Below are positions 1,847-37,410 of a stretch of DNA of 64,000 nucleotides, piece by piece (position 1 is the first letter of the stretch; each line of letters starts with the position of its first letter). A program made the translations under genes and the position numbers. Where the stretch lies: the NCBI RefSeq assembly GCF_056746865.1, contig NZ_CM163382.1; one strand, 5' to 3'. A model generated the notes under the pieces. The model made no database searches, was not told the origin of the DNA, and saw only the letters and a program-made list of their open reading frames with translations.

Positions 1847-1910
1847 CAGGAATTCTTTGGAAACAAAGGTATGTTGATATAAGGGCCTTCCCTGATCATG
1901 GTGGGAAGGC

Positions 1911-4083: not shown

Positions 4084-4170
4084 AGACTGGCCCCCCTGAA
4101 TCACCTGCAGTTGAAGGACAGTAACAGGTTAAGTGATAACAGATGTCTGGAAATATAGAGGTAAATCCAA
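4084..4170. mobile_element. Miniature IS2 remnant: IS2 left and right terminal repeats with almost all internal sequence deleted
   Basis: tagactggcccccctgaatcacc matches IS2 left end; gttaagtgataacagatgtctggaaatatagaggtaaatcca matches IS2 right end; only about 20 bp between them. Confidence 0.55.
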
Positions 4171-4435
4171 GGAAGTGCCACTTTTCATCCGTTGTTGACA
4201 ATACAGCAAAACTTGATGCTATTCGTACGCCCACAATGGAATGTGGATTCAAACTGAATATTCCGTTTGTTGATATGAGTGATTTGGGCAACGGTGGCAA
4301 CAAATAACTTTATACAGGAGCTGACGGTGTTTTCCTGATCATGCCGCCCATATTTTCTTCGGAGGTCGGGGACTTTCAATACCTTCCCCCGACACTCTAT
4401 GACTTCACAAGATTGTCTCCATGACTGCTATGTGC

Positions 4436-6168: not shown

Positions 6169-6992
6169 CTTTCTTCCCTCTGCACCGCTGATGGTCGATA
6201 AGCCACAAAGGGGCGTTCATCGTCAGTAATAATGCTTTCTTCCGAGCCTTTAAGTGTGACATGGCGTAGTACGCCGCTAAAAGCCAGCTCCAGGTTCTCG
6301 GCTGTAAAAGTGGTGTCTGTCGGCCCGCTTGCCAGGACGGTGCCTTTGACCATGACCGTATAATCGCAAAATGTCGTGACGGATCCGAGATTGTGCGTTG
6401 AGACAAGCATCGTTTTGCCTTCCGCGCGTAACTCCCTCAACAGGCTGATGATTTTGGCTTCGGTTTTCACATCAACGCCGGTAAAAGGTTCATCCAGCAG
6501 GATCACATCACCCTGCTGTGCAATCGCTCTCGCCAGAAAGACGCGTTTCTTTTGTCCACCGGAAAGCTCGCCGATTTGTCGATGGCGAAAATCTACCATA
6601 TCGACACGTTCCAGCGCATCGGTGACAACCTGACGATCCCTCTTATTGGCTATACGCAACATACCCATATGCCCATAGCGGCCCATCATCACCACATCTT
6701 CCACCAGTACAGGAAAGGACCAGTCCACTTCTTCTGACTGCGGGACGTAGGCAATCAGGTTTTTCTGCAGAGCCTGCCGCGTGGGAATACCCAGAACAGA
6801 TATCTTTCCGGTAGTCAGACGCACGAATCCCATAATCGCTTTAAATAACGTCGATTTTCCGGAACCGTTTACCCCAACCAGAGCGGCAATAGATCCGCCT
6901 GGTACTGTGAAGGATGCATCGCGCAGTGCTGTGTGCCCGTTACGCCAGGTGACAGTAACGCCATTAACGACAATACCCGCAGATTGCATCAT
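6165..6992 (-). CDS. sitB: Iron/manganese ABC transporter ATP-binding protein SitB
   Basis: Walker [10 protein letters not shown] and ABC signature LSGGQKKR in translation. Confidence 0.9.
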
Positions 6993-7906
6993 TACTTCTC
7001 CCTTTTCCCGGCTTTAATTCCCTGCACCAGCGTACTGGTAGTAACCTTCAGAAGGTCGATATACGTAGGTACCGGGCCGTTTTCTGTGCTCAGGGAATCG
7101 ACATAGAGCACACCGCCGTAGTGTGCGCCGGTTTCACGCGCAACCTGACGCGCTGGTTTATCGGAAACCGTACTCTCACTAAATACCGCTGGGATATTAT
7201 TTTTCTTCACTATATCAACCACTTTACGTACCTGCTGGGGTGTTCCTTGTTGATCGGCATTTATCGGCCACAGATAAAGCTCTTTTAGCCCCAAATCGCG
7301 TGCGAGATAAGAAAAAGCCCCTTCACTGGTGACCATCCATCTTTTATTCTCAGGGAGTTCAGCAATCTGCTTACGCAGGGGGGCAAGGGTTTGGGTAATC
7401 TTGGCTTTATAAGTATCGGCATTACGTTGGTATGTTTTTGCATTTGCCGGATCGTATTTTATCAACGCATCACGAATATTATCGACGTAAATCAAAGCAT
7501 TATCTGGTGACATCCAGGCATGAGGGTTAGGTTTTCCCTCGTAGGGGCCTTCGGTGATCCCTACTGGCGTCACACCCGAAGAGACAATCACTTCTGGAAC
7601 ACCATTGAGATGCTGGTAAAAGCGCTGGAACCACAATTCCAGATTCATTCCATTGGCGAGAATCAGTTGTGCCCCCTGCGCACGTTTAATATCGCCAGGG
7701 GTAGGCTGATACTCATGAATTTCCGCACCGGGCTTGGTTATGGATGAGACTTCTGCAACATCTCCAGCCACGTTTTTGGCCATATCTGCGATGATGGTAA
7801 ATGTTGTAATGACCTTGAATTTTTCAGTTGCACTCGCCTGAAATGCGATCGAGCAGGTGAGGGCGAGGAACCCCAAGAGCATGGTTAATTTTTTTATTGA
7901 GTGCAT
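6992..7906 (-). CDS. sitA: Periplasmic metal-binding protein SitA
   Basis: 304 aa with N-terminal signal peptide; first gene of operon; start overlaps sitB. Confidence 0.85.
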
Positions 7907-7938
7907 AATTCAGTACCTATAGTGAGCAAAATTAGAAC

Positions 7939-7960
7939 AAACATAGCAACGGCTATGTTT
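7939..7960. promoter_or_regulatory. MntR-box-like perfect palindrome upstream of sitA
   Basis: aaacatagcaacggctatgttt, a perfect inverted repeat matching the recalled MntR operator of mntH, about 35 bp upstream of the sitA start. Confidence 0.5.
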
Positions 7961-7979
7961 TATAGCATAATCTATACAA

Positions 7980-8000
7980 ATGCAAATGGTTATCATTAAT
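7980..8000. promoter_or_regulatory. Fur-box-like element upstream of sitA
   Basis: atgcaaatggttatcattaat; minus-strand reading taatgataaccatttgcat resembles the GATAATGATAATCATTATC consensus. Confidence 0.35.
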
Positions 8001-8140
8001 GTATTTGTTTGTAAGTGATGAGATGCTCTTCCTCTCCTTCACGACAGCCTTCAATTACGCCATGATGGATAAACTGTAACCATAAAAGGAGAAATGTACT
8101 GAACACATCCTGCCCTGTTAAGAGAGGTGCACTGTGATGG

Positions 8141-9287
8141 ATGAAGGGTAAAATTGTCTGCTGTGGAGCCTCTCAGATTTCCGGCATCATAGTGCCCAAT
8201 ACGGGATGCAAAAGCGCCCTCAGACTGGCGACTCCACAAATGAAATATACACCGGTTGGCGTTGATATCGCAAAGTATCTGATTCAGGTTCACTTCATCA
8301 ATGAGTACACGGGCGAAGTGGTGGACAAGCAGCTACGTAGCAAGGATTTTCTGACGTTCTTCAGCAACCGGGAACCCTGTCTGATAGGTATGGAGGCTTG
8401 TGGAGGCTCCCAACATTGGGCGAGGGAACTGGAAAAAACTGGGACACAAAGTTCGGCTGTTGCAAGCTCGCTTCGTTAAAGCATTCGTCATGGGCAACAA
8501 AAATGATGTGATGGATGCGCGTGCTATCTGGATGGCGGTACAGCAGCCCAGTAAAGATATCGCTGTTAAAACGGAAGAGAAGCAGTCAGTTCTGGTCCTG
8601 CACCGTTCGCGCAGACAACTGGTGAAGTTCAGAACCTCGCATATTAATACCCTTGGCACGCTCCTCGAGTTTGGTGAAATCCTCCACAAAGATTGGACAG
8701 CGATGGACAGAAAGCTACCGACAGCCCTAGAGCGAATGAAGACGAACCTGCCGCCGTATCTCATCACTGTGCTTGAATACCAGTACAACAGACTGAGTGA
8801 GCTGGGCATGCAGATAGATGGCCTTGATAAACAGATTAACAGCGTGGCACGGCAGAGCGAAAACTGTAAGCGCCTAATGGAAATCCCCGGTGTGGGGCCG
8901 TTAATCGCTACGGCGGTGGTCGCCACCATGGGCGAGGCCTCAGCATTTAAATCCGGACGTGAGTTTGACGCTTATGTCTGTCTGGTGCCGAAGCAGACGG
9001 GGTCCGCTGGGAAGGTTCGCATGCTGGGGATAAGCAAACGTGGGGATACCTACCACCGGACATTATTTATCCATGGGGCAAGGGCGGCAGCATTGCTTAC
9101 CAAAGAACCCGGCCCATGGATCACGGAGCTGAAAAAACGGCAGCCGACAGGTGTAATGCCGATCAGTTTAGGAGCAGTTGACCGATCCAGGGTCTGTTTA
9201 AGAATCCTGAAACGCTCACTCGTTTCCGGATTTTTGTGCACAGAAAAACCCCAGCTAGGCTGGGGGCCGGAAAGCTTTCAGCTTTGA
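8141..9287 (+). pseudogene. IS110-family transposase, frameshifted
   Basis: ORFs 8141-8479 and 8400-9287 overlap in different frames; N-terminal GVDIAK/MEACG and C-terminal IPGVGP/GISKRG motifs. Confidence 0.6.
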
Positions 9288-9325
9288 GCCAGTTATTAAA
9301 ACCCCTTTTGATTTGTTAAAACACC

Positions 9326-9616
9326 TTGCGGTCTGGCAACTGCAAGTGTCAAACAAGAAATCAAAAGGGGGTCCCAATGGGGAACGAAAAGAGCTTAGCG
9401 CATACCCGATGGAACTGTAAATATCACATAGTTTTTGCGCCAAAATACCGAAGAAAAGTGTTCTACAGAGAGAAGCGTAAAGCAACAGGCAGTATTTTGA
9501 GAAAGCTGTGTGAGTGGAAAAGTGTACGGATTCTTGAAGCTGAGTGCTGTGCAGATCATATCCATATGCTTGTGGAGATCCCGCCCAAAATGAGCGTATC
9601 CGGCTTTATGGGATAG
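9326..9616 (+). pseudogene. IS200-family TnpA, 3'-truncated
   Basis: MGNEKSLAHTRWNCKYHIVFAPKYRR...HIHMLVEIPPKMSVSGFMG matches IS200 TnpA; left-end hairpin cccttttgatttgtt/aacaagaaatcaaaaggggg upstream; ORF cut short at 9616. Confidence 0.65.
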
Positions 9617-10347
9617 ACGGCATTAATCGCTTCCGGGAAGCCTTTCAGGCCGTCCACGAAGGCGATAAGGATATCGTTCAGGCCGCGATTTTTCAGTTCC
9701 GTCAGTACATTCAGCCAGAACTTTGCACCTTCATTTTCGGCCAGCCACATATCCAGCAGCTCTTTCTGACCGTCGGTATTGATGCCCAGCGCGAGGAACA
9801 CCGCTTTGTTAATGACACTCCCGCTGTGACGAACCTTAACCACAATACAGTCAAGATAAACAATGGGATACAGTGCATCCAACGGTCGGTTTTGCCATTC
9901 AGAGACCTGTTCTTTAACCGCATCGGTCACTTTGGATATCAGCGTGGGCGAGACATCGGCGTCGTACATTTCTTTGAAGGCTGAGGTAATTTCGCGGGTA
10001 GTCATCCCTCTGGCATACAGCGCCAGGATCTGGTTGTCCATGCCGGTAATGCGGGTCTGATTTTTCTTCACCAGTTGTGGTTCGAAGGAACCATCACGAT
10101 CAGGTGGAGTACGTAATTCCATCGGCCCGTCGGTAGTGGTGACGGTTTTCGTGGAATAGCCATTACGGAAGTTGGTTCCCGATTTGGTCTGATTTTTTTC
10201 ATGTCCCAGATGGTGAGTCAGTTCAGCGTTGAGAGCTGCCTCAACACTTATTTTCTTGAGCAGGCGATCGAACTGACTGAGATCTTCAGGGGTTTTGAGA
10301 TTTTTGGCCAGTTCGTTAGCCAGAGCCTGCAATTGTGTGTCGTCCAT
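9556..10347 (-). pseudogene. IS256-family transposase, C-terminally truncated
   Basis: 263-aa ORF with IS256-like N-terminus (LNAELTHHLGHEKNQ, VYLDCIVVKVR); abuts the truncated IS200 piece. Confidence 0.6.
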
Positions 10348-11267
10348 AATTTAGCTTTCATTTGATGTTGAATTGAACAGATCAAAATCAGGCAATTACA
10401 TAAATCTATGTACAGGCTCAATGCCGGCGCTGGTATTGTAGAAATCAATCCTGCCCCTGATGTCGGAGATACTCTCGTTAACCTTCCTGATTGTATCCTC
10501 TGCTCAGTCAATGGGTTGCCAATGGGGGCACCCTTTCCTGACTGATTCGTCATTTCATTCTTATTGTATGTTACTGGCATTACACCAGTGCTGGCATACT
10601 TTCCTGCGTGTCTGCACCGGTTTGACAAAATTCAACAGGGATAAAATAGTGCAGGAAACTGAAGCATTACTTGCAGAGCCGGGAGACATCCGGCGTTTTA
10701 TTCAACAGGCAGTGGATCACTGGCCGCATTTTCTGATTGTCCACTTCACACACAATTCGACAGAAGGAAACATCAACGGACAACAGATTCATGCATTCTG
10801 AACTTCCTTTTATGAACGTATTACTGAACGTAATCACACTGACAGTCCATCCTCGCCGGTGGTATTACGCTGGTTGCGTGAACAACATGAAGGAACAACA
10901 ATACCTGTTGCTGCTCAGCCATGTGGTGGCATGCAGCGGCACTTTAAGCAGCACAGGGCACTTTGAACTGCTCCGGGAATCCTGGAGACTAAACTCCCTG
11001 AGAAAGAGGTAAACAGGATGAGTATGATTCACAATTGGGGTAATTTGTTCCATTGCCTCAAATGCTGGCTGTACGCCACAGACTCTGCGTGTCTGGGTTA
11101 GCCAGTATGAGCGGGATACAGGGGCGCTTCACACATAACATTCCTTCTAATTTGCATAATTAATTACACTGATAGTCACATTCAATAACTATCATAAGCT
11201 ATCATCTGGCTGACTGTTATTTCGCAACAGTTATTGAGTAAATCTTTAACCTGTTAACAGAGGGTTT

Positions 11268-11792
11268 ATGAAACGTAAACTTATTGCCTTTGTGATTCTG
11301 GCTACATCATCCTGTGGATATGCAGCCACCAAAGATGTAACAATGAATCTTGTTGATAGTGACGGAAAAGAGCGAAATATTGGTAAAATAACCATCCAGA
11401 AGACACCCTACGGGCTGCTGTTCACCCCTGATCTTCACTCCTTACCCGCCGGCATTCATGGTTTTCATGTACATGAAAACGCAAGTTGTGCTCCTGCCCT
11501 GAAAGATGGAAAAACTGTCGCTGCTTTATCTGCAGGTGGTCACTTTGACCCGGAAAAAACAGGGAAGCATCTCGGTCCATGGTCTCCTGATGGCCACCTA
11601 GGTGATCTCCCTGCGCTTTATGTCACTCATGACGGAAAAGCAACCTACCCGGTGCTTGCGCCAAGACTATCTGAATTAAAGGAGCTCGATGGCCGTTCGC
11701 TAATGCTCCACGCAGGAGGTGATAATCATGATGACCATCCTGAACCTCTAGGTGGCGGTGGTGCAAGAATTGCCTGTGGTATCATCCCATAA
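11268..11792 (+). CDS. sodC: Periplasmic Cu/Zn superoxide dismutase, acquired paralogue
   Basis: 174 aa with signal peptide, copper-site histidines (HGFHVHE, GGHFDPE) and C-terminal [12 protein letters not shown]; diverged from chromosomal SodC as recalled. Confidence 0.8.
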
Positions 11793-11799
11793 TCAATCA

Positions 11800-11822
11800 G
11801 GTAAGGGATATCCTCCCTTACC
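11800..11822. terminator. Hairpin between convergent genes, possible bidirectional terminator
   Basis: ggtaagggatatcctcccttacc inverted repeat directly after the sodC stop. Confidence 0.3.
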
Positions 11823-11920
11823 CTTAATCTTCCCTGGCGGCATGTGCATATCTTTCAGTTACTGTGAGATACCTGTATTACGGTGTCTTTTTAGCTCACA
11901 GAAATATCAGACAGCCCGTT

Positions 11921-12145
11921 TCAGTGTTTTATTACCTTAATCTTTTTACGGCATTCTTCAGCTCTTGCGCATGCTATTTTTTCACCTGTTTCATAACATT
12001 GCTGGCAGCCTAATCCAAATTTCATCGCCATATCATAACCTTCCCGAAAACCTCGGAACCACGCGTTACGAAGGTATTCATCATATTCCCCGTAGTCAAT
12101 AATAACCATTTTATTTTCATGGGATTTTCCGGTATTCTCACTCAT
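11921..12145 (-). CDS. Small cysteine-containing hypothetical protein
   Basis: ORF track gives 119 aa; internal start MSENTGK is preceded by a GAGG ribosome-binding site; convergent with sodC. Confidence 0.3.
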   Translation of the reverse strand: MSENTGKSHENKMVIIDYGEYDEYLRNAWFRGFREGYDMAMKFGLGCQQCYETGEKIACARAEECRKKIKVIKH

Positions 12146-12959
12146 TTTCGATACCTCAATGCTTACAACAGAAAAGTATACTTTTACGAAGTTCGCCTTT
12201 GCAGGACTATATAAAGTTATCACTGGATGCAAGAGCCGGAAATCATGTATATCAGGATCAACTTTGTAATTCAATAACATATTATCCAGTGAAAAAGTAA
12301 GTATATTTAAGCTGGGGAAGGAGAAGGGGGACTTAATTTGATATTTTCATCAATAATATTATTTTACCTCCTCCATTATTCATTCAGGCCTGGTTCCGGG
12401 CGTAATTCCGATTTCTCTGTTGAAGCGATGCATTTATATTTAAATATTCACCTGTCATTGAATTTTATTTGAAATAGGAGAAAATCTCCTCCTGTACTAC
12501 AGATAACCCGGAATGTTCCTCGAAAGAAAATTCTGGCGCAGAATTCACGCCCGGTTCTGTTCAACATCATGCAGGATAACGATACCGAAACGTTAAACTC
12601 TGGCAATTCTCGTGTTATACACAGGCAGGAGTGATTACTACGGTAAGAATTGCTGAAAAGGGGAGAACACTGAAGGCCTTATTCGCGAAGAATAAAGGAG
12701 ACATTTCATGTAAATTATTATCAGAGATAACCTTCTCCAGGCGCTTTTGTTCGCTTCCTGAATTGCTACCTGATACATATTTACGGGATGCCAGCCTGGT
12801 GACTATAACTCCGAAAAGACCGATTATTGTATTGCGTGCATCCGGCATGTTTACAATGTACGCTGGTATCTAACGGAGTCTGACACAGATGCACGCAGGT
12901 GTATATTTTAACGTAATTATCCGGAAGGAACAGTATATTTTAATGCGGGAGTTGCATGA

Positions 12960-13777
<818 letters not shown>

Positions 13778-14116
13778 TAATTACACTGTGGGTTGACGCC
13801 GGAAGAATCAGAGAACAGATACCGTTCTTACTGTAAAACGTGGCTAATATTAATTGAGCACTGCAGTGTTCAGAGCACAAAGAAGAAAAAAGATGTGTGC
13901 GAATGCCTGTAATGTGTTAAAAGAATGTTCCGCGTTTCCGGTACGCTTTTCGTAACTAACAATGCAGGGTGACGTAACGCTGGTTGTGCCGGAAACGCGT
14001 CCCTCCCCCTATCTTTCCTGTTTGGATTTGCCCCTATATTTCTGGATTATCCGACAAAACCGGCGTGAAGTATTACTCTCGTCGCCCAGCACCATAAGGA
14101 TAACGCCCATAAAATC

Positions 14117-14482
14117 ATGAAACTTTTCTTCCAGATTGGATACAATCAGGCCGTATCCCGTATTACAGGCTTATCACGTGTGACAGTCAGTCTCTGGGTG
14201 TGTTCAGGAACATTCCCTGAAATGTCAACCCGGCCTCCAGAGCGAGGACTTCTGGCCCCATGGAGGGAGTGGTTAAAAGAGCAACGAGAAAGTGGTAACT
14301 TCGGCGCGTGGCTGCAAGGATGGCAGCTGATGCTGCGGCTATATGTGAGGCAATCGGCAGTCGCTGGAATAATGGGGGTTGTCGAAAGTCATGTAAATAG
14401 ACTAAAAATGCTGAAAGGCCAGATGTATGGTCGAGCCGGATTTGAACTACTCAGACAGAGGGTCATGAGTCCACTGGCATGA
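14117..14482 (+). CDS. Hypothetical protein with possible AlpA-like helix-turn-helix
   Basis: 121-aa ORF containing ITGLSRVTVSLW...FPE; weak resemblance only. Confidence 0.2.
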   Translation: MKLFFQIGYNQAVSRITGLSRVTVSLWVCSGTFPEMSTRPPERGLLAPWREWLKEQRESGNFGAWLQGWQLMLRLYVRQSAVAGIMGVVESHVNRLKMLKGQMYGRAGFELLRQRVMSPLA

Positions 14483-14690
14483 AAATCTCCATCCAGGTTG
14501 CGTAAGAGCCACTTTTCATCCGTCGTCGATATCTGGGATAGCCATAGTGAAATAAAAAGCTGTCTGAATTAAATTATTTTGCACATATATTTTAATCCTG
14601 CACTGAATTAAGAATGGGTAATCAGTGACTGCTTGGACGGTCACTTTTAAGAGAAGGCATTAACAGAGAATGGTAAACAGGCTCAATATA

Positions 14691-18809: not shown

Positions 18810-20897
18810 TCAGAACTGATAGTTCAGCGACATCCAGTAATTTCTCTCAGGTATCACATAACCCGTTGTCGATGCCCCCGTCTGGAAGTAATCACCCGCA
18901 TAAAGCGTACCACTGCCGGCACGATACAGACTTACGTCACTGTAATCCTTGTTAAGCACATTATTCACCGCTGCATTCAGCATCAGTGCATCCGTCACTT
19001 TCCACGACATGCCCGCATCCAGTACCGTCCAGGCTTTCAGATATTCACCTTTCTCATCATACACTTTCTTCTGTACAGCTGAGAGTGACGAATAATTCTG
19101 GGTGAAACGTGGCGTTTTCCCGCGGTAACGGGCACCCAGCCATGATGTCACCTCTTCAGTAATCTGCCAGTTCAGTTTCGCATTCACCATATGCTCAGGG
19201 GTGTAACTCAGTGGTGCACCTTTATTATCCCCATCCCGTTGTTCACTCTGCGTCCAGGTATAATTCAGAGACAGAGTCACATCCTCTGACAACAGAGGCA
19301 GTGTGCCGGCAAATTCCACGCCCTGAGTCCTAGCCTTTCCGCTGTTTGTGTAGCTGCGGGTATTATCATCAATGGAATAAGATACGATCTTGTTGGAGAA
19401 TTCTGTCATAAAGCCCGTGATATTGGCGTTCAGACCGGCATGATTATCGTAATACACGCCCGCTTCATAACTGACACTCTCCTCCGGCTTCAGGTCCGGG
19501 TTACCGAGAAGATTCGTACGCCCCTGACCGGACACACCGCTGATCCCCTTATGTAACTGCCCCATGCTGGGCGCCTTATATCCCGTGGTCACCCCACCTT
19601 TCAGCGTCCACGCATCAGTCACATCCCAGACCATATATGCCCGGGGACTGAAGTGTCCTCCGAACACCTCATAGCGTTCATAGCGGCTACCCGCAGTCAG
19701 TGCAAATGCATCCGTGATATACCACTCATCCTCAACAAATGCCGACCAGCTTTTCTGACGGAAGGTTTCACCAGTACTGGCGAGAACAACCCCGTCTTTC
19801 ATGGAGGAGTTCTGATACTCACCACCGACGGTAACCTTGTGTGATTCCCCCAGAGGTGCAAACAGTAATGAGCTCAGGATAAGATTCGACTCCTTAAGCT
19901 CCCTCGGCTGGCCGGCAAGCCCCCATTTATCACGCTGCAGTACGCTACGTACAAGCTGACGGCCTTTATTTTCCGTCTCATTCCAGTTCAGAGATGACTT
20001 CCAGGCTCCGAAGGTGAATGTATGATCATAGCCTGCTGAAATTTTATTACGCTCATAGCGCAGGGTGCGATCATAACCGCCCGTCAGACTGCCCAGCTGG
20101 CCATCTCGGTTATCATAACGCTGCCGGGCGATATCCATATCAATCCAGAGTACATCCTTGTCCGTCGCTTTCCAGTCAAGACGACCACCTGCATTATAAT
20201 TCTGTGATTCCGTGGGATAAGGGATACGCGTAGCTGAGGTGTCGCTCAGTGATGTGACCGATGAGCCCTGACGCTGCTGTGTGCTGCCACGTACCTGAAG
20301 GCTGAGTGAATCATCCACAAGGGGACCGCTGCTCCAGAAATTAAACTGGCTGCTGTTCCCCCATTTGTTACTTTCCTGCAGGTTCAGCCCGGCATTAACC
20401 GAAGAGCGCCATTTGTCTGCATTCTTTTTGGTGATGATATTCACCACGCCCCCCATGGCATCAGAGCCGTACAGAGTGGACATGGGGCCCCTGATAATCT
20501 CAATACGTTCGATGGCGGCCAGAGGTGGCATAAAACCCGTATTCATGGCAGCATAACCGTTTGGGGTTACGTCACTGCTCCCGCCCTGACGGACACCATC
20601 GATCAGTATCAGCGTATAACTGGCAGGCATTCCGCGGATGCTGATTTCGAGCCCACCTGTTTTACCCGTACCGCTTTCAACATCCACCCCCTCTACGGAT
20701 CTCAGTGCCTCCCCCAGATCATGATACTGGCTGGATCGCAAATCCTCCTGGCTGATCACTGAAACACTCGCAGCTGCACTGGTTAATTTTTTTTCATAGC
20801 CAGACGCCGTGACTACCATCACATCTTCCGCAGCCATACTGCTGACTGAAAACCCGAGACAAGGGATGGCTACTGAAGCCAGAGTGGTTACTCGCAT
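18810..20897 (-). CDS. iha: TonB-dependent siderophore receptor/adhesin, Iha-like (IrgA homologue)
   Basis: 695 aa with signal peptide, TonB-box-like EDVMVVTAS, plug plus beta-barrel, C-terminal aromatic residue; size and sequence recalled as Iha. Confidence 0.6.
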   Translation of the reverse strand: MRVTTLASVAIPCLGFSVSSMAAEDVMVVTASGYEKKLTSAAASVSVISQEDLRSSQYHDLGEALRSVEGVDVESGTGKTGGLEISIRGMPASYTLILIDGVRQGGSSDVTPNGYAAMNTGFMPPLAAIERIEIIRGPMSTLYGSDAMGGVVNIITKKNADKWRSSVNAGLNLQESNKWGNSSQFNFWSSGPLVDDSLSLQVRGSTQQRQGSSVTSLSDTSATRIPYPTESQNYNAGGRLDWKATDKDVLWIDMDIARQRYDNRDGQLGSLTGGYDRTLRYERNKISAGYDHTFTFGAWKSSLNWNETENKGRQLVRSVLQRDKWGLAGQPRELKESNLILSSLLFAPLGESHKVTVGGEYQNSSMKDGVVLASTGETFRQKSWSAFVEDEWYITDAFALTAGSRYERYEVFGGHFSPRAYMVWDVTDAWTLKGGVTTGYKAPSMGQLHKGISGVSGQGRTNLLGNPDLKPEESVSYEAGVYYDNHAGLNANITGFMTEFSNKIVSYSIDDNTRSYTNSGKARTQGVEFAGTLPLLSEDVTLSLNYTWTQSEQRDGDNKGAPLSYTPEHMVNAKLNWQITEEVTSWLGARYRGKTPRFTQNYSSLSAVQKKVYDEKGEYLKAWTVLDAGMSWKVTDALMLNAAVNNVLNKDYSDVSLYRAGSGTLYAGDYFQTGASTTGYVIPERNYWMSLNYQF

Positions 20898-20946
20898 ATC
20901 TTCTCTCCGATTATATTAATCAGAGAGAAGATAAACAAACGCAAGA

Positions 20947-20965
20947 GATAATGAGAATGATTTGC
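20947..20965. promoter_or_regulatory. Fur box upstream of the Iha-like receptor gene
   Basis: gataatgagaatgatttgc, strong match to the Fur consensus, about 50 bp upstream of the start. Confidence 0.45.
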
Positions 20966-21209
20966 TTTTGGTTTTTACATAAAAAAGCAAAAAATTACAA
21001 AATATTACATAAGGTTCTACTATACCCCGAATTTCAGTTGAGGACGTTCTTTTCTCTAGGGGAAAGTAACGGATAGCAATCGTTGACGATCCATATCGGA
21101 TTTTTGCACTATGGGTATTTATCCAATCTTTATCAGTTTCTTGTCCTTGGATATGTTAATCATACACTATCGGATATTTCGTACATCAGACAGGTGAATA
21201 TAATTAATA

Positions 21210-21494
21210 ATGAGGAGTTTTATGGACAATAGAACAATTACTCTGCAGGAATTACTCGAGTACATGTCAATGCTTCGAGACGACATGAATGCTCTCACGG
21301 TTGCATTTTCATATCTGGCTTCATCGCTTCCTAAGGAACAGATGATACAAATACTGGCATTCATTCATTTTGAATCAAATAATTCCAGATGGTCTTCAGA
21401 ACAGCAGAAATCTTTCAAATGGCTAGCATCACTACTGGAGGGCTGTTATACAGTTCACACAAACATTTTTGATATACCATCAAAGAACCACTAG
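21210..21494 (+). CDS. Hypothetical small protein in AT-rich DNA
   Basis: 94-aa ORF; no recognisable motif. Confidence 0.2.
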   Translation: MRSFMDNRTITLQELLEYMSMLRDDMNALTVAFSYLASSLPKEQMIQILAFIHFESNNSRWSSEQQKSFKWLASLLEGCYTVHTNIFDIPSKNH

Positions 21495-22158
21495 TACATT
21501 ATGATACATTCCCTCTGAAATATATTTCTACTTTGAGCGCCTCTGACTTTATGAGGCGCTTTGTCCAGCAAACCAAACATACTCGCTGGAAACAGAGTAA
21601 AGTATTATTATCCCCGATACATCTATATTTTACAACAGCGCATCCATATATTAATTAACGATGCAGTTAAGTTCCCCATTCTACCCAATTTACTGTTTTT
21701 GTTGTTTGAAAGAAGACTCTCATTAAGTGAGAGCCATCTGTAAGTATCCCGCATAATCGCTCCATTCATATTTAGAGATCATCCGGAATAATCAATCTGA
21801 TAACGAAGAAAATCGCTATGCGTAAAGCCCGTATTACTGAGTATTAGATCATCGCTGTAATTAAATCGGTTGAAACCGGACGAACAATTAAAGATGTTTG
21901 TCGGGAAGCCGGTATTTCTGAAGCCACTTACTACATCTATTGACTACCTCAGTTTTGCAAGCACTGATTCTGGTTTTGGATTGTTGCTTACATCTATCCG
22001 GCATCAGGAAAACCTGTGCCCAAATAGGGAATCCACACACAATCGCCTCTACAACTGGACGACCTCTGAGGCCAGTACAAAAATCAGGTTCCGATTGTGC
22101 AGGTGCAACCCGTCACCATTTCTCAGTACGCTGCAACTTTTGCTGAAAGAGATTAACT

Positions 22159-22620
22159 TCACACTGCCTGATATTCTGTATCATTTATCAGCATCGACCA
22201 GATTATTCTCGCGTATTTGTTAGCAATCTCCACAGTAGTTTTATTAAATTCGCGACTCTCCTTTAACTGCTTAACCCACTGATTTAGGTATACATCATTA
22301 TTATTCGTAGCAACTCTAACGACAGCACGGACGCCATGAATAAAAAGTGTTTGCAGATGCTTGTCGCCTTTTTTCGTTATATTCATGAGAACTTACCTGC
22401 AGCAACTCTAGTGCAGGCATGGAAGCAGACCAAGCCATGCAGCACAGTGACGATCATTCTTAAATTCAGTGCCTTTGCCAATAATAACAGCAACAACGCT
22501 CGTGACAATTTCAGGACCAATGCCTTTAGCTTTTGCAATACGCTGACAGCATTCAGATTGCCTGGACAGGTCTCTATTTATTTATCAAAAAAGTTTATAC
22601 TACGACCGAGATCGTTAAAG
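22159..22620 (-). pseudogene. IS110-family transposase C-terminal fragment, cut by IS630
   Basis: ORF 22159-22386 (GDKHLQTLFIHGVRAV...ANKYARIIW) plus upstream frame with IAKAKGIGPEIVTSVVA; homology ends at the IS630 boundary. Confidence 0.45.
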
Positions 22621-22628
22621 AGATCATC

Positions 22629-23786
22629 TAAATAGCTGCGCCTAATACCACTACACTTTTGCCAGCCCATGTTTGCCTCCGGGGAACGGGCTGATGGTTT
22701 CCATAAAATGGCGAATTTTTTTCAACAGTTGCCACATTGAGCGGCACTGATGATTACGCGTTATTGTGTCGTGAAGTGCCTGCCATAGCCGTTCAACATG
22801 ATTCACCCATGGCAAGTAAACCGGCTGATAAATGACCCTGAACTTCGGGTTCTCCTTCAACCAGCGCTGTGTTTCCCGGCTTTTGTGGATAATGTAGTTG
22901 TCCACGATCAGTGTGATGGTTTTCACCCGAAGGTATGTCGCTTTAAGCCGCTTCAGCAGGCTGATGAACAGCGCCGAACTTTTGCTGTTGCCGCCCACAT
23001 AGCTGACTTTACCTGTCCCGCTGTGCAGCGCTCCGGCCAGATCATATTTTTCATTCTGTCCCGGCGTGACCACCCGTTTTTGCTGTCCGCGCAGTTGCCA
23101 GTCCGCACCGATTTTGGGATTAAGATGGATATCCACTTCATCTTCATAAAAGACCGGATGCTCTGTGCTGCATTCGTCCAGTGCTTTATGGATTGCTGCC
23201 ATCTTTTCATCTTTATGCGGGTCACGGATACGCAGAGTTGGCGCAGCCCTTCGCCACACAATCCCCGCAGACGGCAACCAGCGGCGAACGGTTCCGGCAT
23301 TTAACTGGCAATCGGTTATCTCATTGATTTTTATTGCCAGCAGTTCTGTACTCCAGCGTGAACGCTGGTAGCCAAAGTCGCCGGGAGAATGTTTTACCAG
23401 CTCACGTAACAGTGTGCAGATATGCTCAAACGACCAGAGACGGGCTCGCCCGGCAGGTAATGATTTCAGTCCCTCAACACCCGACTGCGTGAACCAGTTA
23501 ATCCAACATCCAACAGAGGAACGGGCGCAGCAGAGCGTTCTGGCAACGTCGCTGACACGGTCGCCCCGGTGCAGCATCAGCATGGCAGTCAGTCTGCGGG
23601 CATAATTTTTATCGTGTGTTTTATGGATGGCTTTCTGCATCAGGCGTCGTTCGTCACGGGAAATTGGTGCTATGATCGGCATTGCTCAGTCCGGTTGGTG
23701 ATTTGTTTTGATTTGGCGATTGATCAGATCGCACAATCCAGGCTGAGCTCCCTCAAAGTGATCTACTATTCCGCGCAGCTATTTAG
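22629..23786 (-). mobile_element. IS630 insertion sequence, complete
   Basis: About 1158 bp bounded by inverted repeats taaatagctgcgc/gcgcagctattta; contains intact transposase. Confidence 0.8.
22651..23682 (-). CDS. IS630 transposase
   Basis: 343 aa; near-identical to the recalled IS630 transposase (MPIIAPISRDERRLMQKAIHK...). Confidence 0.85.
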   Translation of the reverse strand: MPIIAPISRDERRLMQKAIHKTHDKNYARRLTAMLMLHRGDRVSDVARTLCCARSSVGCWINWFTQSGVEGLKSLPAGRARLWSFEHICTLLRELVKHSPGDFGYQRSRWSTELLAIKINEITDCQLNAGTVRRWLPSAGIVWRRAAPTLRIRDPHKDEKMAAIHKALDECSTEHPVFYEDEVDIHLNPKIGADWQLRGQQKRVVTPGQNEKYDLAGALHSGTGKVSYVGGNSKSSALFISLLKRLKATYLRVKTITLIVDNYIIHKSRETQRWLKENPKFRVIYQPVYLPWVNHVERLWQALHDTITRNHQCRSMWQLLKKIRHFMETISPFPGGKHGLAKV

Positions 23787-24039
23787 TTCCGCTATCGTTC
23801 TGCACATACAAGCTCTTAACCCGTTTATGCATCCTCAAGGCTCAGCAGAATAGCTGTCAGCGCCAATGATATAAGACAGTAATGGGGATGCGGACGATTT
23901 CCTGGACTCTCAGGAGATGAAACATGTTTACTGAAGAAGAAAAAATCCGCGCCATTGAGCTTTATTTCAAATATGTGACCCGTCCTGAATAGCGTTGACA
24001 CGTTCCTACTTAAATCCGGAGAACGTAATGATGACTTAG

Positions 24040-25260
24040 CTCAAACGCACCCAACGTGATTATCCTCTATCCTTTAAAATAGCTGTTGTTGAGCAGGTTG
24101 AAAAAGGCGAGATGACTTATAAACAGGCCCAGCAGCGGTATGGCATTCAGGGGCGCTCCACCGTTCTTGTCTGGTTACGTAAATATCCTGGACTTCCTGA
24201 GCTGGTGAAGAGGAAACTGCCTGTGACTCAGACAACTATCCCGCTCACACCCGAGCAAAGAATCAGGGAACTTGAAACGTAGCTTGAGCTGGCGAACCAG
24301 AAAGCTACGTTTTTTGAGTCAGTTATCAATGTCCTGAAAAATGATTACGGGGTGAGTATCGTAAAAAGCGGCCCGGCAAGTCCTCGCGCAAAGTCCGGTC
24401 CCCAAAATAACTGTGACGCGTGCAGTCTGTTCCTGGGACACAGCAGACAGGCATGGTATCAGGACAATGCAAGGCGCAGAAAACGGCAGGAACATCATGC
24501 TCAGGTTCTTGATTTTGTTGCCCGTGTCAGATGTCGTCAGCCCCGAATCGGTGCGCGTAAGCTGCACTATCTGCTGAACACTCAGGCCGATAAAAGGCTG
24601 AATATCGGGCGAGACCGCCTGTTTAACCTGCCCGATGAATACCGACTCCTGGTGCCAGTAAAACGGTCATATCACAAAACTACCAACAGCCATCATCGCT
24701 TCTACCGACATCCAAACCTGCTTAAACCAGGCCCTGAACAGGTTACTGCTCTTGAACCAGAACAGGTCCGGGTCGCCGATATTACTTACCTTCCACTGCG
24801 CAATAGTTCGGCCTATCTGAGTCTGGTCACCGATGCCTGCTCCAGAAAAATTATGGGCTACCATGTTGGGGAAAACCTGCAGACAGAAAATGTGGTAAAA
24901 GCGTTCAGACAGGTGCTGAAGCTGAGAAAAACGACGAGTCCCCTGGTGCATCATTCTGGCAGGGGCTGCAATACTGTTCAGCGCTCTATCAGTCAGTTCA
25001 TGAAAGAAATGAAATAACCTGTTCAATGACTGATGGTTATGACTGCTACCAGCATTGGCTGAGTGAATAAATGGTACCCTGAAAAATGAGTTTTTACTCT
25101 CGCGTCCTGCAGACCTGGCTCAGGCCCGGGAAATGGTCCAAGAGTCCGTGGCAATTTATAACCATGAGCGGCCACACCTGGCTCTGAAATACAAAACGCC
25201 CTATGACGTTCATCAGGCGTTTTACAGACAGAAAAGTGTCAACTTATACCAAGACTAGTC
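24040..25260 (+). pseudogene. IS3-family transposase orfA/orfB, multiple stops and frameshifts
   Basis: OrfA-like helix-turn-helix (YPLSFKIAVVEQVEKG) with in-frame TAG; orfB 24352-25017 with DDE core; C-terminal piece to about 25260. Confidence 0.5.
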
Positions 25261-25485
25261 AATGGTAAGAAGCTGGCTCCCGTCGTACGCGAACTGGGCT
25301 ACCCTTCGAAAAGAAATCTGCGGCGTTGGATCCGTTCATAGGAATCAGGTGGCGGAGCAAAAGAATCCATTCGCCATAAGCCCCGTTACACAGATGAGCA
25401 AAAACAAGTTGCCGTTGAACATTATCTTAACCACGGCTGCTGCCTAGCGTTTACCAGTAGAACTCTGGGTTATCCCTGTACCGAT

Positions 25486-25878
25486 GTGCTCGCTCGCTGG
25501 GTTAATGAACGTTACCCCGGCAGACGACGTATATTTACCAGTAAGACCAGTCCGGTTGCGCCCTTTGAACCAGAAGTCAAACGTCAGGCTGTCATGGCAT
25601 TCTGTACACGACAAATATCAGCCAGTGAAATCTCTAGGCGTATTGGTGTCAGTCGTGCGGTATTGTATAAATGGAAAGATGAAATTATCGGCAACAGTGC
25701 TTACCAGACTATGCGTAAACATAACGAACCTTCCCTAGAGGCAGAACGCGATGCGTTGCGGGAGGAAGTCGCCCGACTGAATCAGGAAATACGCCGCCGG
25801 CAGATGGAACTGGATATTCTGAAAAAAGCGGAGAAAATCATAAAAAATCTATGGTCACCCCCGTTTTTGCTACACTGA
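25486..25878 (+). pseudogene. IS3-family OrfA-like fragment
   Basis: FEPEVKRQAVMAF...leucine-zipper...LKKAEKI typical of IS3-family OrfA; no orfB follows. Confidence 0.4.
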
Positions 25879-26122
25879 TTTTTGATTAATGGTGGGCTTG
25901 CTTAAATCTATCCGGCGTCTCTGTGGACAAGGAGACCCGCGCCTCGATGAGTTCCGCACCTGATAATCCTAAAAAGACCCTCGGCTTCAGTGAGCCATTT
26001 TTTCTGTCAGGTTTTTAATCAGGTCTATTTGCCGTTCATGTCATCAATAATCAGTCTTCGCAAAACCAGACAGGTAACTTGTATCGTAAGCGTGCAGCAA
26101 GAACCGTATTGACGGGGATGTG

Positions 26123-27661
26123 TTATTCAGTCGGCAGTGCTACGCGCCAGGGGAGCAGTTCGCCGACCCGGTTTATCGGCCAGTCGGCTATGACGTCAAG
26201 GACATAGCGGAGGTAGCTTTCTGGCTCCACTCCGTTCAGTTTGCACGTCCCGATCAGGCTGTACAGCAGCGCTCCCCGCTCTCCTCCATGATCCGAACCG
26301 AAGAACAGGTAGTTTTTGCGGCCCAGACTGACCATCCGCAACGCATTTTCAGCGATGTTATTGTCCGCCTCAGCCCAGCCATCATCTGCATAGTACGTCA
26401 GCGCCGGCCACTGGTTCAGGGCGTATGCGAACGCTTTCGCCAGTTCTGAGTGTCGCGACAGGGTTTTCATCTTTTCACGCAGCCAGCTTTCCAGGGATTT
26501 CAGCAGCGGTTTCGTTTTCAACTGACGTTCGGCAAGGCGCTGCTCCGCCGTCATTCCCCTTATCTCTGCCTCGATGGCGTACAGTTCGCCGATCCGTTTC
26601 AGCGCTTCCTCCGTCAGGGCTGACGGGGTGCGAACGTGCACATCGTGGATTTTACGGCGGGCGTGAGCCCAACAGGCGGCTTCCGTTATCCGGCCATCCC
26701 GGTACAGCTCGTTGAACCCGGCGTATGCATCCGCCTGCAGTACACCACTGAACCCCGCAAGATGGGTCTGCGGATGGATGCCTTTTCTGTCCGGGCTGTA
26801 AGCGAACCACACCGCCGGCGCCAGCGTTGACCCGGCGTTACGGTCGTCACGAACGTAGGTCCATAACCGCCCGGTCTTCGTTTTCTTATTGCCTGGCAAC
26901 AGCACCGGGACAGGCGTGTCATCAGCATGGAGCTTACCGTCAGTCAGCACATAGTCCTGAAGCGCTTCTTCCAGCGGTGACAGTAGCCGGCAGCATGCAT
27001 CCACCCAGCCCGACAGCAGTGAACGACTCAGCTCCACGCCCTGGCGGCCGTACATTTCAGACTGGCGGTACAGCGGGGTGTGCTCTGCATACTTTGAGAT
27101 CAGCACGCGGGCCAGCAGCCCCGGTCCTGCGATACCCCGCTCGATGGGCCGTGAAGGCGCGGGGGCCTGCACGATGGCATCGCACTGAGTACAGGCATGC
27201 TTTTCACGTACAGTCCGGATAACCCGGAAGGCGCTGCGCATCAGCTCCAGCTGTTCGGCGGCATCCTCACCCAGATAGCTCAGCGAGCCTCCACATTCCG
27301 GGCAGCATGACGCTGCCGGCAGCAGCCGTTTTTCATCGCGGGGGAGTGATTCGGGGAACGGTTTGCGGGTGCGGGTTTGACGCAGCGGGCGCTGCACGGC
27401 CGGGTCGTCAACCCGACCGGTAAGGGTATCACTTTCTTTCTGAAGTGCCTTCAGGTCAGCTTCCATCTGTGCGATACGACGGGAGACTTTTTCCGAGCGG
27501 CTGCCGAAGTTCATCCGGCGCAGCTTATCCAGCTGTGCCTGCAGATGGTCTATTTCGCGTTCACGCTCGTTCAGCTTTTCCTGCAGGGCACGGTTCAGCG
27601 CCTCCTGTTCGGCAAGGAGACGTTTCAGTGCATTGATATCGTCAGGAAGTGAGCTGCTCAT
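26123..27661 (-). CDS. IS66-family transposase TnpC
   Basis: 512 aa with CCPECGG zinc motif and IS66 DDE core. Confidence 0.85.
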
Positions 27662-27709
27662 ACCGGGTATATTACCAGGCTCATTCAGCGTCGACCAGGA
27701 TAAAGAGGC

Positions 27710-28057
27710 TTACAACATAGTCAGGGACGTAAGCAGTCTTTTAGGCTGCCGCCAGTCGATACCTTCCAGCAGCATCGCCAGCTGTGCCGGTGTGAGGAAC
27801 ACTTTGCCATCCCGGGCTGACGGCCAGGCGAAGCGGCCGCGCTCCAGCCGTTTGGTCAGCAGACACAGTCCATCGCCGGTAGACCAGAGGAGCTTTACCT
27901 GACTGCCATTACGCCCACGGAAGATAAAAACGTGACCTGACATCGGATCGTCTTTCAGCGTCGTCTGCACCTTTGCCGCCAGGCCGTTGAAGCCGTTTCT
28001 CATATCGGTGATGCCAGCGACCAGCCAGATCTTTGTCCCTGATGGTAATGGGATCAA
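27710..28057 (-). CDS. IS66-family TnpB
   Basis: 115 aa MIPLPSGTKIWLVAGITDMRNGFNGL... Confidence 0.85.
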   Translation of the reverse strand: MIPLPSGTKIWLVAGITDMRNGFNGLAAKVQTTLKDDPMSGHVFIFRGRNGSQVKLLWSTGDGLCLLTKRLERGRFAWPSARDGKVFLTPAQLAMLLEGIDWRQPKRLLTSLTML

Positions 28058-28458
28058 CGTTTGAGCTCCCGTATCAGCAGGTTCAGGATATTTTCACTGA
28101 TGGCACCATTCAGACGGAGTGATCCGTGCCGGAACGTCACTTCACAGCTGATATTGAGTGATTCAGGTGTCGCAGTAGCTACAGGTTGTGACCGGGGGGA
28201 GGTTGTAGGGACAACATCTTCGGCATCAAGTGTTATCGGGAGCAGCTCAGGCACGTTGTTTTCTGTTGTTGAAGGAGGACGTAGTTTTCCTTCGCGCCAG
28301 TACTGGCGCCACTTGAACAGCAAATTATCGTTGATCCCATGCTCACGAGCGAGTTGCGCTACGGAGATCTCTGGTCGATGCGAGAGTTCAACCATTTTGA
28401 TTTTGAACTCAACGGGATAATTAGGGCTTTTTTTACGCACTGCGGTTAATGATTTCAT
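28054..28458 (-). CDS. IS66-family TnpA (orf1)
   Basis: 134 aa helix-turn-helix protein, 4-bp overlap with tnpB. Confidence 0.8.
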   Translation of the reverse strand: MKSLTAVRKKSPNYPVEFKIKMVELSHRPEISVAQLAREHGINDNLLFKWRQYWREGKLRPPSTTENNVPELLPITLDAEDVVPTTSPRSQPVATATPESLNISCEVTFRHGSLRLNGAISENILNLLIRELKR

Positions 28459-28600
28459 GGATAGCGTCCACCATATTTGGTGTCCACTATTCTCTCAGGA
28501 ATTTCAGGATCTGCCAGACGGTGCTGAGACGACGCTTACCTTGTATCTTATTTTTTAAAATAAGCTAATTGAGTTTTGTCAGTATCTATATCAGGCCTGA

Positions 28601-29580
28601 TATTCTTTGTGCAGAGCAGTGATTGCCCAGGCTATTCGGGCCAGTTTATTTGCCAGAGCGCAGGCGACAATATTTGAATGCTTATTGTCGAGTTGCTTTT
28701 GAACCCATTCAGCAACTCTGCCCTATTGATGCTCCAGCCGCATCATGAACGAGCGGGCGTACAGAACAAGTAACCGACTCGTTTGCTGATCCCCAGCAGC
28801 ATTGATTTACCACCGGTACTGTATTGTCGGGGAACAAGTCCTGTGGATGCTGCAAAATCCCTACTGCACGAAAATTGTTTACCATCACCAAGCTGGGATG
28901 ATAGCAGGCTGGCCGTCATCGGCCCAACACCGGGGATTGTCATGATTCGTTGCACAGTAGCGTCAGCTTTGATTGACTGGTTTAACTCTGATTCCAGTTC
29001 TGTTATTTGCTCAATACGATAAAGATAGTGAGCATGTAATTTCATCAGCAAGCGACTCAGATATTCAGGTATTTCGTGTTCAGCTAACGCCAGAGATAAC
29101 CATTTTATTGCGGCATCCCCTGTCGGCAGTCTGATTCCAAATTCCAGCAAGAAACCGTGGATCTGGTTGTTTTTTTTCACCTTATCTCTGATGAGCGATT
29201 CTCTGACCCGATGTAATGCCCTCATTGCCTGCTGGGTTTCTGTTCTGGGCTGGACAAAACGCATTGATGGTCGTGAAGCCGCTTTGCATATGGCTTCTGC
29301 ATCAATAAAATCATTCTTATTACCTTTGACAAACGGACGCACGAATTACGGAGAGATAAGTTTTTCTTCATGACCGATGTCGCTGATACGCCGGGCCATA
29401 AAATGCGTACCAGCGCAGGCTTCCATAACAACTACTGAGGATGGACATGTTGCCAGAAACTGCATCAGCTTCGTACGCGTAAACTTTTTACGCAAAAGCG
29501 CATTGCCAGATTTATCTTGACAATGAATATGGAAAGAATGTTTACCGAGATCGATACCAATAAGCGCAACGTTTTACATG
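28601..29580 (-). pseudogene. IS110-family transposase, disrupted
   Basis: ORF 28743-29342 (IS110 core, IPGVGP, GISKR); N-terminal piece with in-frame TAA near 29400; C-terminal ...ACALANKLARIAWAITALHKEYQA in shifted frame ending at 28601. Confidence 0.5.
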
Positions 29581-29627
29581 ATGGTGCCCTCTAAAATAAC
29601 CCACCCTGTCAGCGTACCGCTCACAGG

Positions 29628-30532
29628 GTGGGGGTGACCATCTCATTAGACCCGGGCATCAGTATCAGTCACCTAAACAACAGAGAAAAAACAAATATCG
29701 CTGATGCCCTGAGACAAACATATCCCCTGACAGAATTACTGCATGTTCTGGGGCTTGCCCGTAGCAGTTATTTTTATCACCGGGCTGCACTGAAAGCCGG
29801 TGATAAATACGCCACGATACGTACGATGCTGACAGATATAGTTAACAGTAATTACCAGTGTTATGGCTATCGTCGCCTGCATGCGATGCTCAGGCATGAG
29901 GGGGTCAGCTATCAGAAAAGGTTGTAAGCAGACTTATGGTGAAGGAACAGCTTGTCGTCAGCCGTAACCGTCGTCGCCGCTACAGCTCATATTGCGGAGA
30001 AATCGGACCGGATCCGGATAACCTTATCGCCAGAGATTTTAAGGAGGACCAACCTAATCAGAAATGGCTGACAGATATAACGGAGTTCCAGCTTCCTGCA
30101 GGAAAAGTCTGGCTGTCACAGGTGGTGGACTGCTTCGATGGAAAAGTTGTGAGCTGGTCTCTCAGTACACGCCCCGACGCAGAACTGGTTAACGCTATGC
30201 TGGATAACGCTGTCAAAACGTTAAATGCTGGCGAACGACCGATGATACACAGTGGCAGAGGTGGGCATTATCGCTGGCCAGGCTGGCTGGAAAGAGTTAA
30301 TGCCGCAGGTCTTATTCACTCAATGTCCCGTAAGGATGATGCCGCATGCGAAGGCTTTTTCGGCAGACTGAAAACGGAAATGTATTATGGGCGTAAATGG
30401 TCGGGCATCATGCCGGAAAAGTTCATGCAGCATGTGGATGCTTACATCAGAGGGTATAACGAGCGGCGTATAAAATTATCGCTGGGTGAAGACAGCCCTG
30501 AAATGTACCGCCAACAATGTAGGCTGGAATAA
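29628..30532 (+). pseudogene. IS3-family orfB with internal stop; orfA absent
   Basis: ORFs 29628-29927 and 29936-30532 form one integrase-core protein (QKWLTDITEF..., rve-like) split by a stop. Confidence 0.55.
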
Positions 30533-31079: not shown

Positions 31080-31825
31080 TGAGTGCATTTCGTACAGTTA
31101 ACCGCAAAAGGAGGGGGTACTCCATTCCATGAACTGGAAGCCCAGATACGATGCATAGAGTCACCTGATATTAAAAAGAACGAGGATCTTGAGGACGAGA
31201 ACCGACGTCCAAAACAGATGCTTGCCGACCTTAGCCTAGAGAACCGGCATTGAAAGACATTATCGAAAAAAGCTTTAAAACCAGCCTGTAAGCGTGAGCT
31301 TGTTACTCATCAGATAACGACATTTGGACTCAGTGTCCATCAGGCCTGCCGGAGTCTGAACCAGAGCAGAACGGTTTCCCATTACCGTCCGGATACCACG
31401 TGGTACGACCCCGTTATTGTGGTGGTGCAGGCAGTGGACGAGCGATATCCTCGATACGGTTTTTCAAAACTTTTTCAGGTTCTGAGGCAGCAGGTTCGCG
31501 GCAAATCGCAGTTATCCGGTCATGCTGCGCATAGATAATGGTTCGGAATTTATCTCTCTAACGCTGGCTGAATGGGCTGATATACACGCAGTAAAACGGG
31601 AGTTTATCCAGCCGGGTAAGCTGACGTAGAACGCTTTTATTGGGCGTTTTAACAGGACACACCGTACAGAAATACTCGATTTTTATCTGTTCAGAACGCT
31701 GAATGAAGTTCTAGAAATTACGGAGAAATGGTTATCAGAATATAGCTATGAACGCACACATGAATCACTGAACAATAAGACGCTGGAAGAATATCGACGA
31801 CACCATTATTTGACCAAGATATAAA
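31080..31825 (+). pseudogene. IS3-family transposase remnant, heavily degenerate
   Basis: OrfA C-terminus (ENRRPKQMLADLSLEN) and orfB C-terminus (ERFNRTHRTEILD...ERTHESLNNKTLEEY) recognisable between many stops. Confidence 0.4.
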
Positions 31826-37067: not shown

Positions 37068-37406
37068 GTGGAGCGGACAATCCAAATGGTGAATTACCGT
37101 CTTATATCACTGGCGCTGACAGGCTTTAACGGCCTGTCCTCAAAAGTTCAGAACGTCCTGAAGGATGACCCGTTCTCCGGGCATATCTTCGTCTTCCGGG
37201 GCCGCAGTGGCAAAATGGTGAAAATACTGTGGGCCGATCGTGATGGGTTATGCCTGTTCGCCAAACGCCTGGAACGGGGCCGCTTCATCTGGCCGGTGAC
37301 CCGGGAAGGGAAAGTGCACCTGACGCCAGCTCAGTTATCCATGCTACTGGAGGGGATCGCGTGGCAACATCCCAAACGGACAGAACGGCCTGGCATCCGG
37401 ATATAA
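37068..37406 (+). pseudogene. IS66-family TnpB, 5'-truncated
   Basis: Matches IS66 TnpB from GFNGL onward; N-terminus replaced at the junction with the IS21-family element. Confidence 0.55.
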
Positions 37407-37410
37407 CCCG

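Follow-up and report, generated by a model that had tools for sequence, protein, structure and literature searches.

The DNA analysed here is a stretch of 64,000 nt from contig NZ_CM163382.1 of RefSeq assembly GCF_056746865.1, which we refer to as the window; all coordinates are positions within it and strands are given relative to the strand shown. Near its middle lie three insertion sequences (IS) nested one inside the other: an IS3-family element contains an element of the IS1111 type, which in turn contains an element of the IS66 family. The innermost of these, at 26086-28539, is, as judged from its sequence, a complete copy of the known ISEc22. It is bounded by an exact 8-bp repeat, and the DNA around it is found uninterrupted in other genomes, which we drew from a comparison set of 5,426 complete E. 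coli genomes. The features of the locus are collected in Table 1.

The tnpA, tnpB and tnpC genes of ISEc22 lie consecutively on the minus strand, and all three are open and full length, at 134, 115 and 512 amino acids, in agreement with the original prediction, made from the sequence alone, of an IS66-family element with three intact open reading frames (ORFs). The TTG start of tnpB overlaps the stop of tnpA as TTGA (28054-28057, read from the sequence), and a spacer of 48 nt separates tnpB from tnpC. Searches with Pfam models recovered DDE_Tnp_IS66 in TnpC with E 5e-107 (model positions 1-283 of 284), along with zf-IS66, LZ_Tnp_IS66 and DDE_Tnp_IS66_C, and the NCBIfam model transpos_IS66 scored 468 bits against a cutoff of 180. 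The protein thus combines the N-terminal leucine-zipper region, the zinc finger and the IS66-type DDE domain that characterize the family. Likewise, TnpB was recovered by Pfam TnpB_IS66 (E 1.6e-38) and NCBIfam IS66_TnpB (120 bits; cutoff 50), and TnpA by Pfam HTH_Tnp_1 (E 9e-12) and NCBIfam IS66_ISRel24_TnpA (82.7 bits; cutoff 74).

The element starts with GTAAGCGT and finishes with ACGCTTAC, and its ends form imperfect terminal inverted repeats of the GTAAGCG type that match at 17 of 26 positions. The same pattern, GTAAGCG followed by an ACCGT block, is also seen at the ends of a second complete IS66-family element of the window, ISEc23, and at the end of a third, fragmentary member at 40959. 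Other GTAAGCGT/ACGCTTAC 8-mers, at 2530, 31288 and 55219-55226, were considered as IS66 ends and rejected, being without the ACCGT block (the one at 31288 falls within a match to the small RNA isrN); about 2 such 8-mers are expected by chance per 64 kb on both strands.

At the nucleotide level 1071 records match the element at 99% or more, and the best of those listed are identical to it over all 2454 bp. Many E. coli loci with this identical DNA bear the RefSeq name "IS66-like element ISEc22 family transposase", next to accessory genes for TnpA and TnpB. The proteins encoded at identical DNA are WP_000839181.1 (TnpA), WP_000612626.1 (TnpB) and WP_000099202.1 (TnpC). Its length equals that given for ISEc22 in Table 2 of PMC5001619. 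The name used here accordingly comes from the RefSeq-named copies and the published length.

Each end of ISEc22 is abutted by the 8-mer CTTGTATC. This repeat is exact and not extendable, since the preceding bases are A on the left and C on the right and the following bases G and T, respectively. The perfect 8-bp duplication that had been claimed thus stood, and realignment to the empty site again gives exactly 8 bp. On the plus strand of the window the 8-mer occurs only 3 times, and two given positions would share 8 bp by chance once in 65,536 cases. Six other ISEc22 copies are base-for-base identical to this one over exactly 2454 bp, each in different DNA and each with its own, different 8-bp duplication. 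As these identical copies in unrelated DNA end at the same 2454 bp, the boundaries of the element are fixed independently of the repeat; and as each of them carries an 8-bp repeat, 8 bp is the normal footprint of ISEc22. An 8-bp target-site duplication has been reported for IS66 (PMC6778807, citing Machida 1984). Comparison of the seven ISEc22 sites yielded no clear target motif, only a leaning towards AT (GC 0.29-0.48), in what is too small a sample for a consensus.

The state of the site before the insertion is preserved in other genomes. The segment 20000-36000 of the window is covered to at least 80% in 55 genomes, and its twelve best matches are all 100% identical, each at 85% query coverage; in most of the twelve the matched span is 13,539 bp, that is, the query minus 2462 bp (2454 + 8). 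Removal of 26086-28547 from the window leaves a sequence that is identical to NZ_AP045764.1 (hereafter L001) across a 1639-bp stretch spanning the site (window 25700-29800), where CTTGTATC is present once. The CTTGTATC pair is a true target-site duplication. When a 300-bp query across the filled left junction was searched against the collection, none of the 5,426 genomes spanned it. Because the flanks are undiverged (100%) from genomes that have no element here and no genome shares the junction, the insertion is, on this sequence comparison, recent and private to the lineage of the window within the collection.

Table 1. Features of the ISEc22 locus and other IS66-family sequences in the window
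Feature	Position	Strand	Basis or remark
ISEc22, IS66 family, complete, 2454 bp	26086-28539	- (genes)	100% full-length identity to RefSeq "IS66-like element ISEc22 family" copies
Right inverted repeat (IRR), tnpC end, GTAAGCGTGCAGCAAGAACCGTATTG	26086-26111	.	17/26 positions match the other end, including terminal GTAAGCGT and ACCGT block
tnpC, DDE transposase, 512 aa	26123-27661	-	Pfam and NCBIfam
tnpB, IS66 accessory protein, 115 aa, TTG start	27710-28057	-	Pfam and NCBIfam
tnpA, helix-turn-helix accessory protein, 134 aa	28054-28458	-	Pfam and NCBIfam
Left inverted repeat (IRL), tnpA end	28514-28539	.	Inverted-repeat comparison of the two ends
Left target-site duplication copy CTTGTATC	26078-26085	.	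Abuts element; single copy in empty-site genomes
Right target-site duplication copy CTTGTATC	28540-28547	.	Abuts element
Host ISSfl8-like element, IS110 family, IS1111 type	25848-29648	-	Alignment to ISSfl8 and relatives
Host distal 3' non-coding tail and right end	25848-26077	-	Alignment with intact ISSfl8
Host right subterminal inverted repeat GGGGGTGACCAT	25851-25862		7 nt inside end
Host proximal part: first 43 nt of tail, transposase pseudogene, left end	28548-29648	-	Alignment with intact relatives
Host transposase pseudogene	28591-29579	-	Codon 2 TAA, second in-frame TAA, 16-bp deletion
Host left subterminal inverted repeat ATGGTCACCCCC	29630-29641		7 nt inside end
IS3-family element, left part (orfA side)	25246-25847	+	Annotation of identical empty-site locus and junction sequence
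Same IS3-family element, right part (orfB side)	29649-30532	+	
Predicted seekRNA/bridge-RNA-like loop, outer stem to outer stem	25955-26026	-	Consensus fold of 5 copies
T loop strand, 9 nt	25998-26006	-	Matches bottom strand of right target flank
Conserved hairpin between loop strands	25982-25997	-	
B loop strand	25971-25980	-	Matches left target flank and core
ISEc23, IS66 family, intact, 2532 bp	50742-53273		100% identical to RefSeq-named copies
Third IS66 member, fragments	37122-37964 and 39920-40959		5'-truncated within tnpB, split by IS21-family (IS100-like) element
Fourth IS66 member, tnpA fragment	53863-54123		

The two flanks of ISEc22 are the halves of a single element. After removal of ISEc22 and one copy of the repeat this host is 1339 bp long and aligns end to end with the intact ISSfl8 at 83.6% DNA identity, the two halves lying colinearly with it, and closer relatives reach about 94%. 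One intact ISSfl8 is represented by WP_001179707.1 in NZ_CP018991.1. The Pfam domains DEDD_Tnp_IS110 and Transposase_20 are recovered both in the intact ISSfl8 protein, which the NCBIfam model transpos_IS110 describes as an "RNA-guided transposase" with 351 bits, and in the surviving 199-aa ORF of the window. RefSeq annotates the identical locus as an "IS110 family RNA-guided transposase" pseudogene. IS1111-type elements are distinguished by subterminal inverted repeats and by a long non-coding region downstream of the transposase gene (Siddiquee et al., PMC11187229), and the host shows DEDD transposase domains, subterminal inverted repeats and non-coding parts of about 70 nt on the 5' side and about 284 nt in the 3' tail. 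Since the same stop codons and the same 16-bp deletion are present in genomes with the empty site, the host was dead before ISEc22 arrived.

The insertion point of the host is precisely the A AAA AAG programmed-frameshift site of the IS3-family element (window 25840-25849 and 29649-29662), and two further ISSfl8-like copies (L003 and L013) likewise occupy such a site, each in an IS3-family element. From this position it follows that the predicted guide of the host is directed at a conserved motif that has a function in another IS. ISEc22 was inserted 43-51 nt past the stop of the host transposase gene, in the 3' non-coding tail, so that its location in the tail of an IS110-family element was correctly called from the start. 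As the target is a dead element inside another dead element, no functional gene was disrupted, and the insertion is probably without phenotypic consequence. We also note a near-perfect AT-only palindrome, TTATTTT-TT-AAAATAA (28549-28564), which adjoins the duplication just after the stop of the host transposase gene and is kept in relatives of ISSfl8; it could form a terminator-like hairpin or be a feature of the target.

Taken together, the observations are best read as a recent transposition of ISEc22, with an 8-bp duplication, into the tail of an already dead ISSfl8-like element, a reading to which we assign a probability of about 0.96. By analogy with DDE transposons and with what is known of the IS66 family, TnpC, aided by TnpA and TnpB, would bind the GTAAGCG-type terminal repeats; the 3'-OH ends of the element would, as in DDE chemistry generally, attack phosphates of the target that lie 8 bp apart; and the host cell, in repairing the 8-nt gap left on each side, would then create the CTTGTATC duplication. 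Nothing contradicts this reading, to which three qualifications apply. Firstly, we infer the transposition competence of this copy from its intact ORFs and from the identity of its sequence with one that has been widely multiplied, and on these grounds it is presumably still active. Secondly, the view that all three genes are required goes back to IS679, for which Han et al. reportedly found this in 2001. Thirdly, misplacement of a repeated IS during assembly is conceivable, but the perfect duplication, together with the empty state of this site in other genomes, argues strongly against it.

Among the alternatives, the one that survives best, though we consider it unlikely, holds that the window copy is structurally intact and yet an inert fossil. 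The activity of ISEc22 may indeed be low: in a culture-based mobilome study of a Klebsiella strain it yielded only one transposition read and 0 circle junctions (PMC5001619, Table 2). Against this, no ORF of the window copy is damaged, and hundreds of identical copies in other places, together with a private junction between undiverged flanks, point to very recent movement. We give much less weight to an assembly artefact, in which the assembler would have placed a repeated IS at this position. Multi-copy IS are a classic source of misassembly and the filled junction is present in none of the collected genomes; however, neither misplacement nor collapse of a repeat makes a precise 8-bp duplication of a unique target at the exact termini of an IS, and a recent transposition would be expected to appear as an insertion private to one lineage. 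Homologous recombination between ISEc22 copies, or a chance match of two 8-mers, in place of direct transposition is the weakest alternative, close to negligible and refuted by the comparison with the empty site: many E. coli genomes hold ISEc22 and related IS66 elements in several copies (ISEc22-matching places have a median of 3 per genome) and recombination between copies is common in general, but it leaves non-matching flanks, whereas here the repeat is exact to 8 bp, the sequence without the element and one repeat exists at 100% identity in other genomes, and both flanks are colinear halves of one host element.

The window holds further IS66-family sequences, and the original prediction had taken them, with ISEc22, as a sign of recent and repeated activity of the family. 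This holds for the two complete elements: for each, relatives whose flanks are identical show the site unoccupied. The ends of ISEc23 match at 20 of 26 positions, and it is flanked by the 8-bp duplication GCATGATA (50734-53281 including the duplications), its empty site being found in NZ_AP039429.1. As the ISEc23 site is also filled in at least one other genome (H70), this insertion is older than that of ISEc22. The two fragmentary members do not fit the claim: they are old, for they are also present in relatives, including those with the empty site. The third member retains a recognisable right end, GTAAGCGGTTCGCCAGAACCGTATTGA, and the C-terminus of its TnpC is 66% identical to that of ISEc22. 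The further idea that both complete elements represent a single IS, for which a comparison of their identity had been proposed, did not survive that comparison: the proteins of ISEc23 and ISEc22 are 65% (TnpC), 66% (TnpB) and 39% (TnpA) identical, and their DNA is similar only in patches of 70-80%.

The tail of the host into which ISEc22 was inserted contains a predicted structure of the seekRNA or bridge-RNA kind. We aligned the tails from four independent insertions, namely the group of copies that includes the window, L002 (in a DUF4942 gene), L004 (near tssE) and L011, and found that nearly all variation among them is confined to two 9-nt stretches. In a consensus fold of five copies these two stretches face each other across an internal loop; a conserved hairpin lies between them, and an invariant stem closes the structure. 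The fold of the single sequence has an energy of -19.5 kcal/mol. The 3' stretch (B) reads GGGTC, GGGGA, GGGGC or TGATG in the four copies, followed by a run of T, and it equals the last 5 nt of the element's own left flank at 5 of 5 positions in all four cognate pairs and at fewer in every non-cognate pair. The 5' stretch (T), compared with the reverse complement of the right flank, matches in register at 9 of 9 positions in L002 (CAGATGAAA) and at 8 of 9 in the window copy. In L011 it has an exact 9-nt match (CAGAAGGAA) one base out of register, an ambiguity that stems from the shared run of T, and in L004 only an offset match of 6 nt. In E. coli 536 (L012) the pair is mixed: its T segment is that of ISSfl8 and its B segment that of L011.

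A test for covariation in the stems found 0 compensatory pairs, the stems being invariant among the five sequences; as the stems do not vary, the structure is supported by its folding energy and by the co-variation of the loops with their targets. An Rfam search of the empty-site locus for a bridge or seekRNA family returned none, isrN alone being matched. In IS1111-family elements, of which ISEc11 was studied, the seekRNAs carry target segments for both strands, the complement of the top strand coming first, and the corresponding non-coding region of ISEc11 is essential and was found to have no internal promoter (PMC11187229). From the pattern of sequence variation, the variable loop strands look like the result of natural reprogramming of a seekRNA- or bridge-RNA-like guide.

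ISEc22 sits 59 nt 5' of the outer stem of this guide loop, so the loop is unbroken and 2.46 kb of inserted DNA now lies between the dead transposase gene and the guide module. By this analysis a comparable insertion into a live element would probably disable it; here it changes nothing. The guide module remains structurally intact, its guides still match the flanks of the host element, and it lies directly downstream of, and co-directional with, the tnpC gene of ISEc22. One may speculate that read-through from ISEc22 could produce a seekRNA-like RNA serving a related, intact transposase in trans and, separately, that the ISSfl8 group might present four naturally reprogrammed guide/target pairs that have gone undescribed as such, a proposal we regard as very doubtful. 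In a promoter scan of 25800-29700 sites were no more frequent than in shuffled sequence, and neither tnpA nor the guide region had one on the minus strand.

The wider window is part of a chromosomal island of the type found in extraintestinal pathogenic and avian pathogenic E. coli (ExPEC/APEC), with sitABCD, the aerobactin genes (iuc/iutA), iha and a group II intron (1-14616 and 20000-24000). The island is a mosaic: for the first 20 kb, and likewise for 36001-60000, coverage by any one complete genome stays below 80%. It also contains two inverted repeat pairs that are each 100% identical, one of 603 bp (13123-13725 versus 45521-46123) and one of 1704 bp (55999-57702 versus 60145-61848); these presumably represent additional IS copies, and inversions of the island could arise through them. 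A full-length match to the Rfam model of isrN, an Hfq-binding small RNA (138 bits, E 3e-31), lies at 31277-31419 on the minus strand, equivalent to 11816-11958 of L001, within an annotated degraded integrase-core/IS3-type pseudogene and between two IS110-family pseudogenes.

The element described here was already named and known, and the event itself is an ordinary one. The insertion is nevertheless a clean, lineage-private marker that could help to type or date the source strain, and it places very recent movement of ISEc22 in an ExPEC/APEC-type island of iron-uptake and adhesin genes (sit, iuc/iutA, iha) that was already a graveyard of nested IS elements. What is of wider interest came incidentally: the relatives of ISSfl8 illustrate RNA-guided target choice in IS1111-type elements and provide new examples in support of the seekRNA/bridge-RNA model.

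Set against known systems, the window element has the same length, DNA, proteins, GTAAGCG termini and 8-bp duplication as the RefSeq-named copies of ISEc22, and differs from them only in its insertion site. ISEc23 has the same tnpA-tnpB-tnpC order and GTAAGCGT ends, and it too is flanked by an 8-bp duplication, at a site whose empty form has been verified. The host has in common with ISSfl8 the short 5' end, the DEDD transposase, the tail of ~284 nt and the subterminal inverted repeats. In contrast to ISSfl8 and ISEc11, the window copy is a pseudogene split by ISEc22. For the ISSfl8-like elements as a group the guide RNA is a predicted one. The predicted guide of the host has the layout and strand order of the IS1111-family seekRNAs (PMC11187229), with the complement of the top strand placed 5' of the other.

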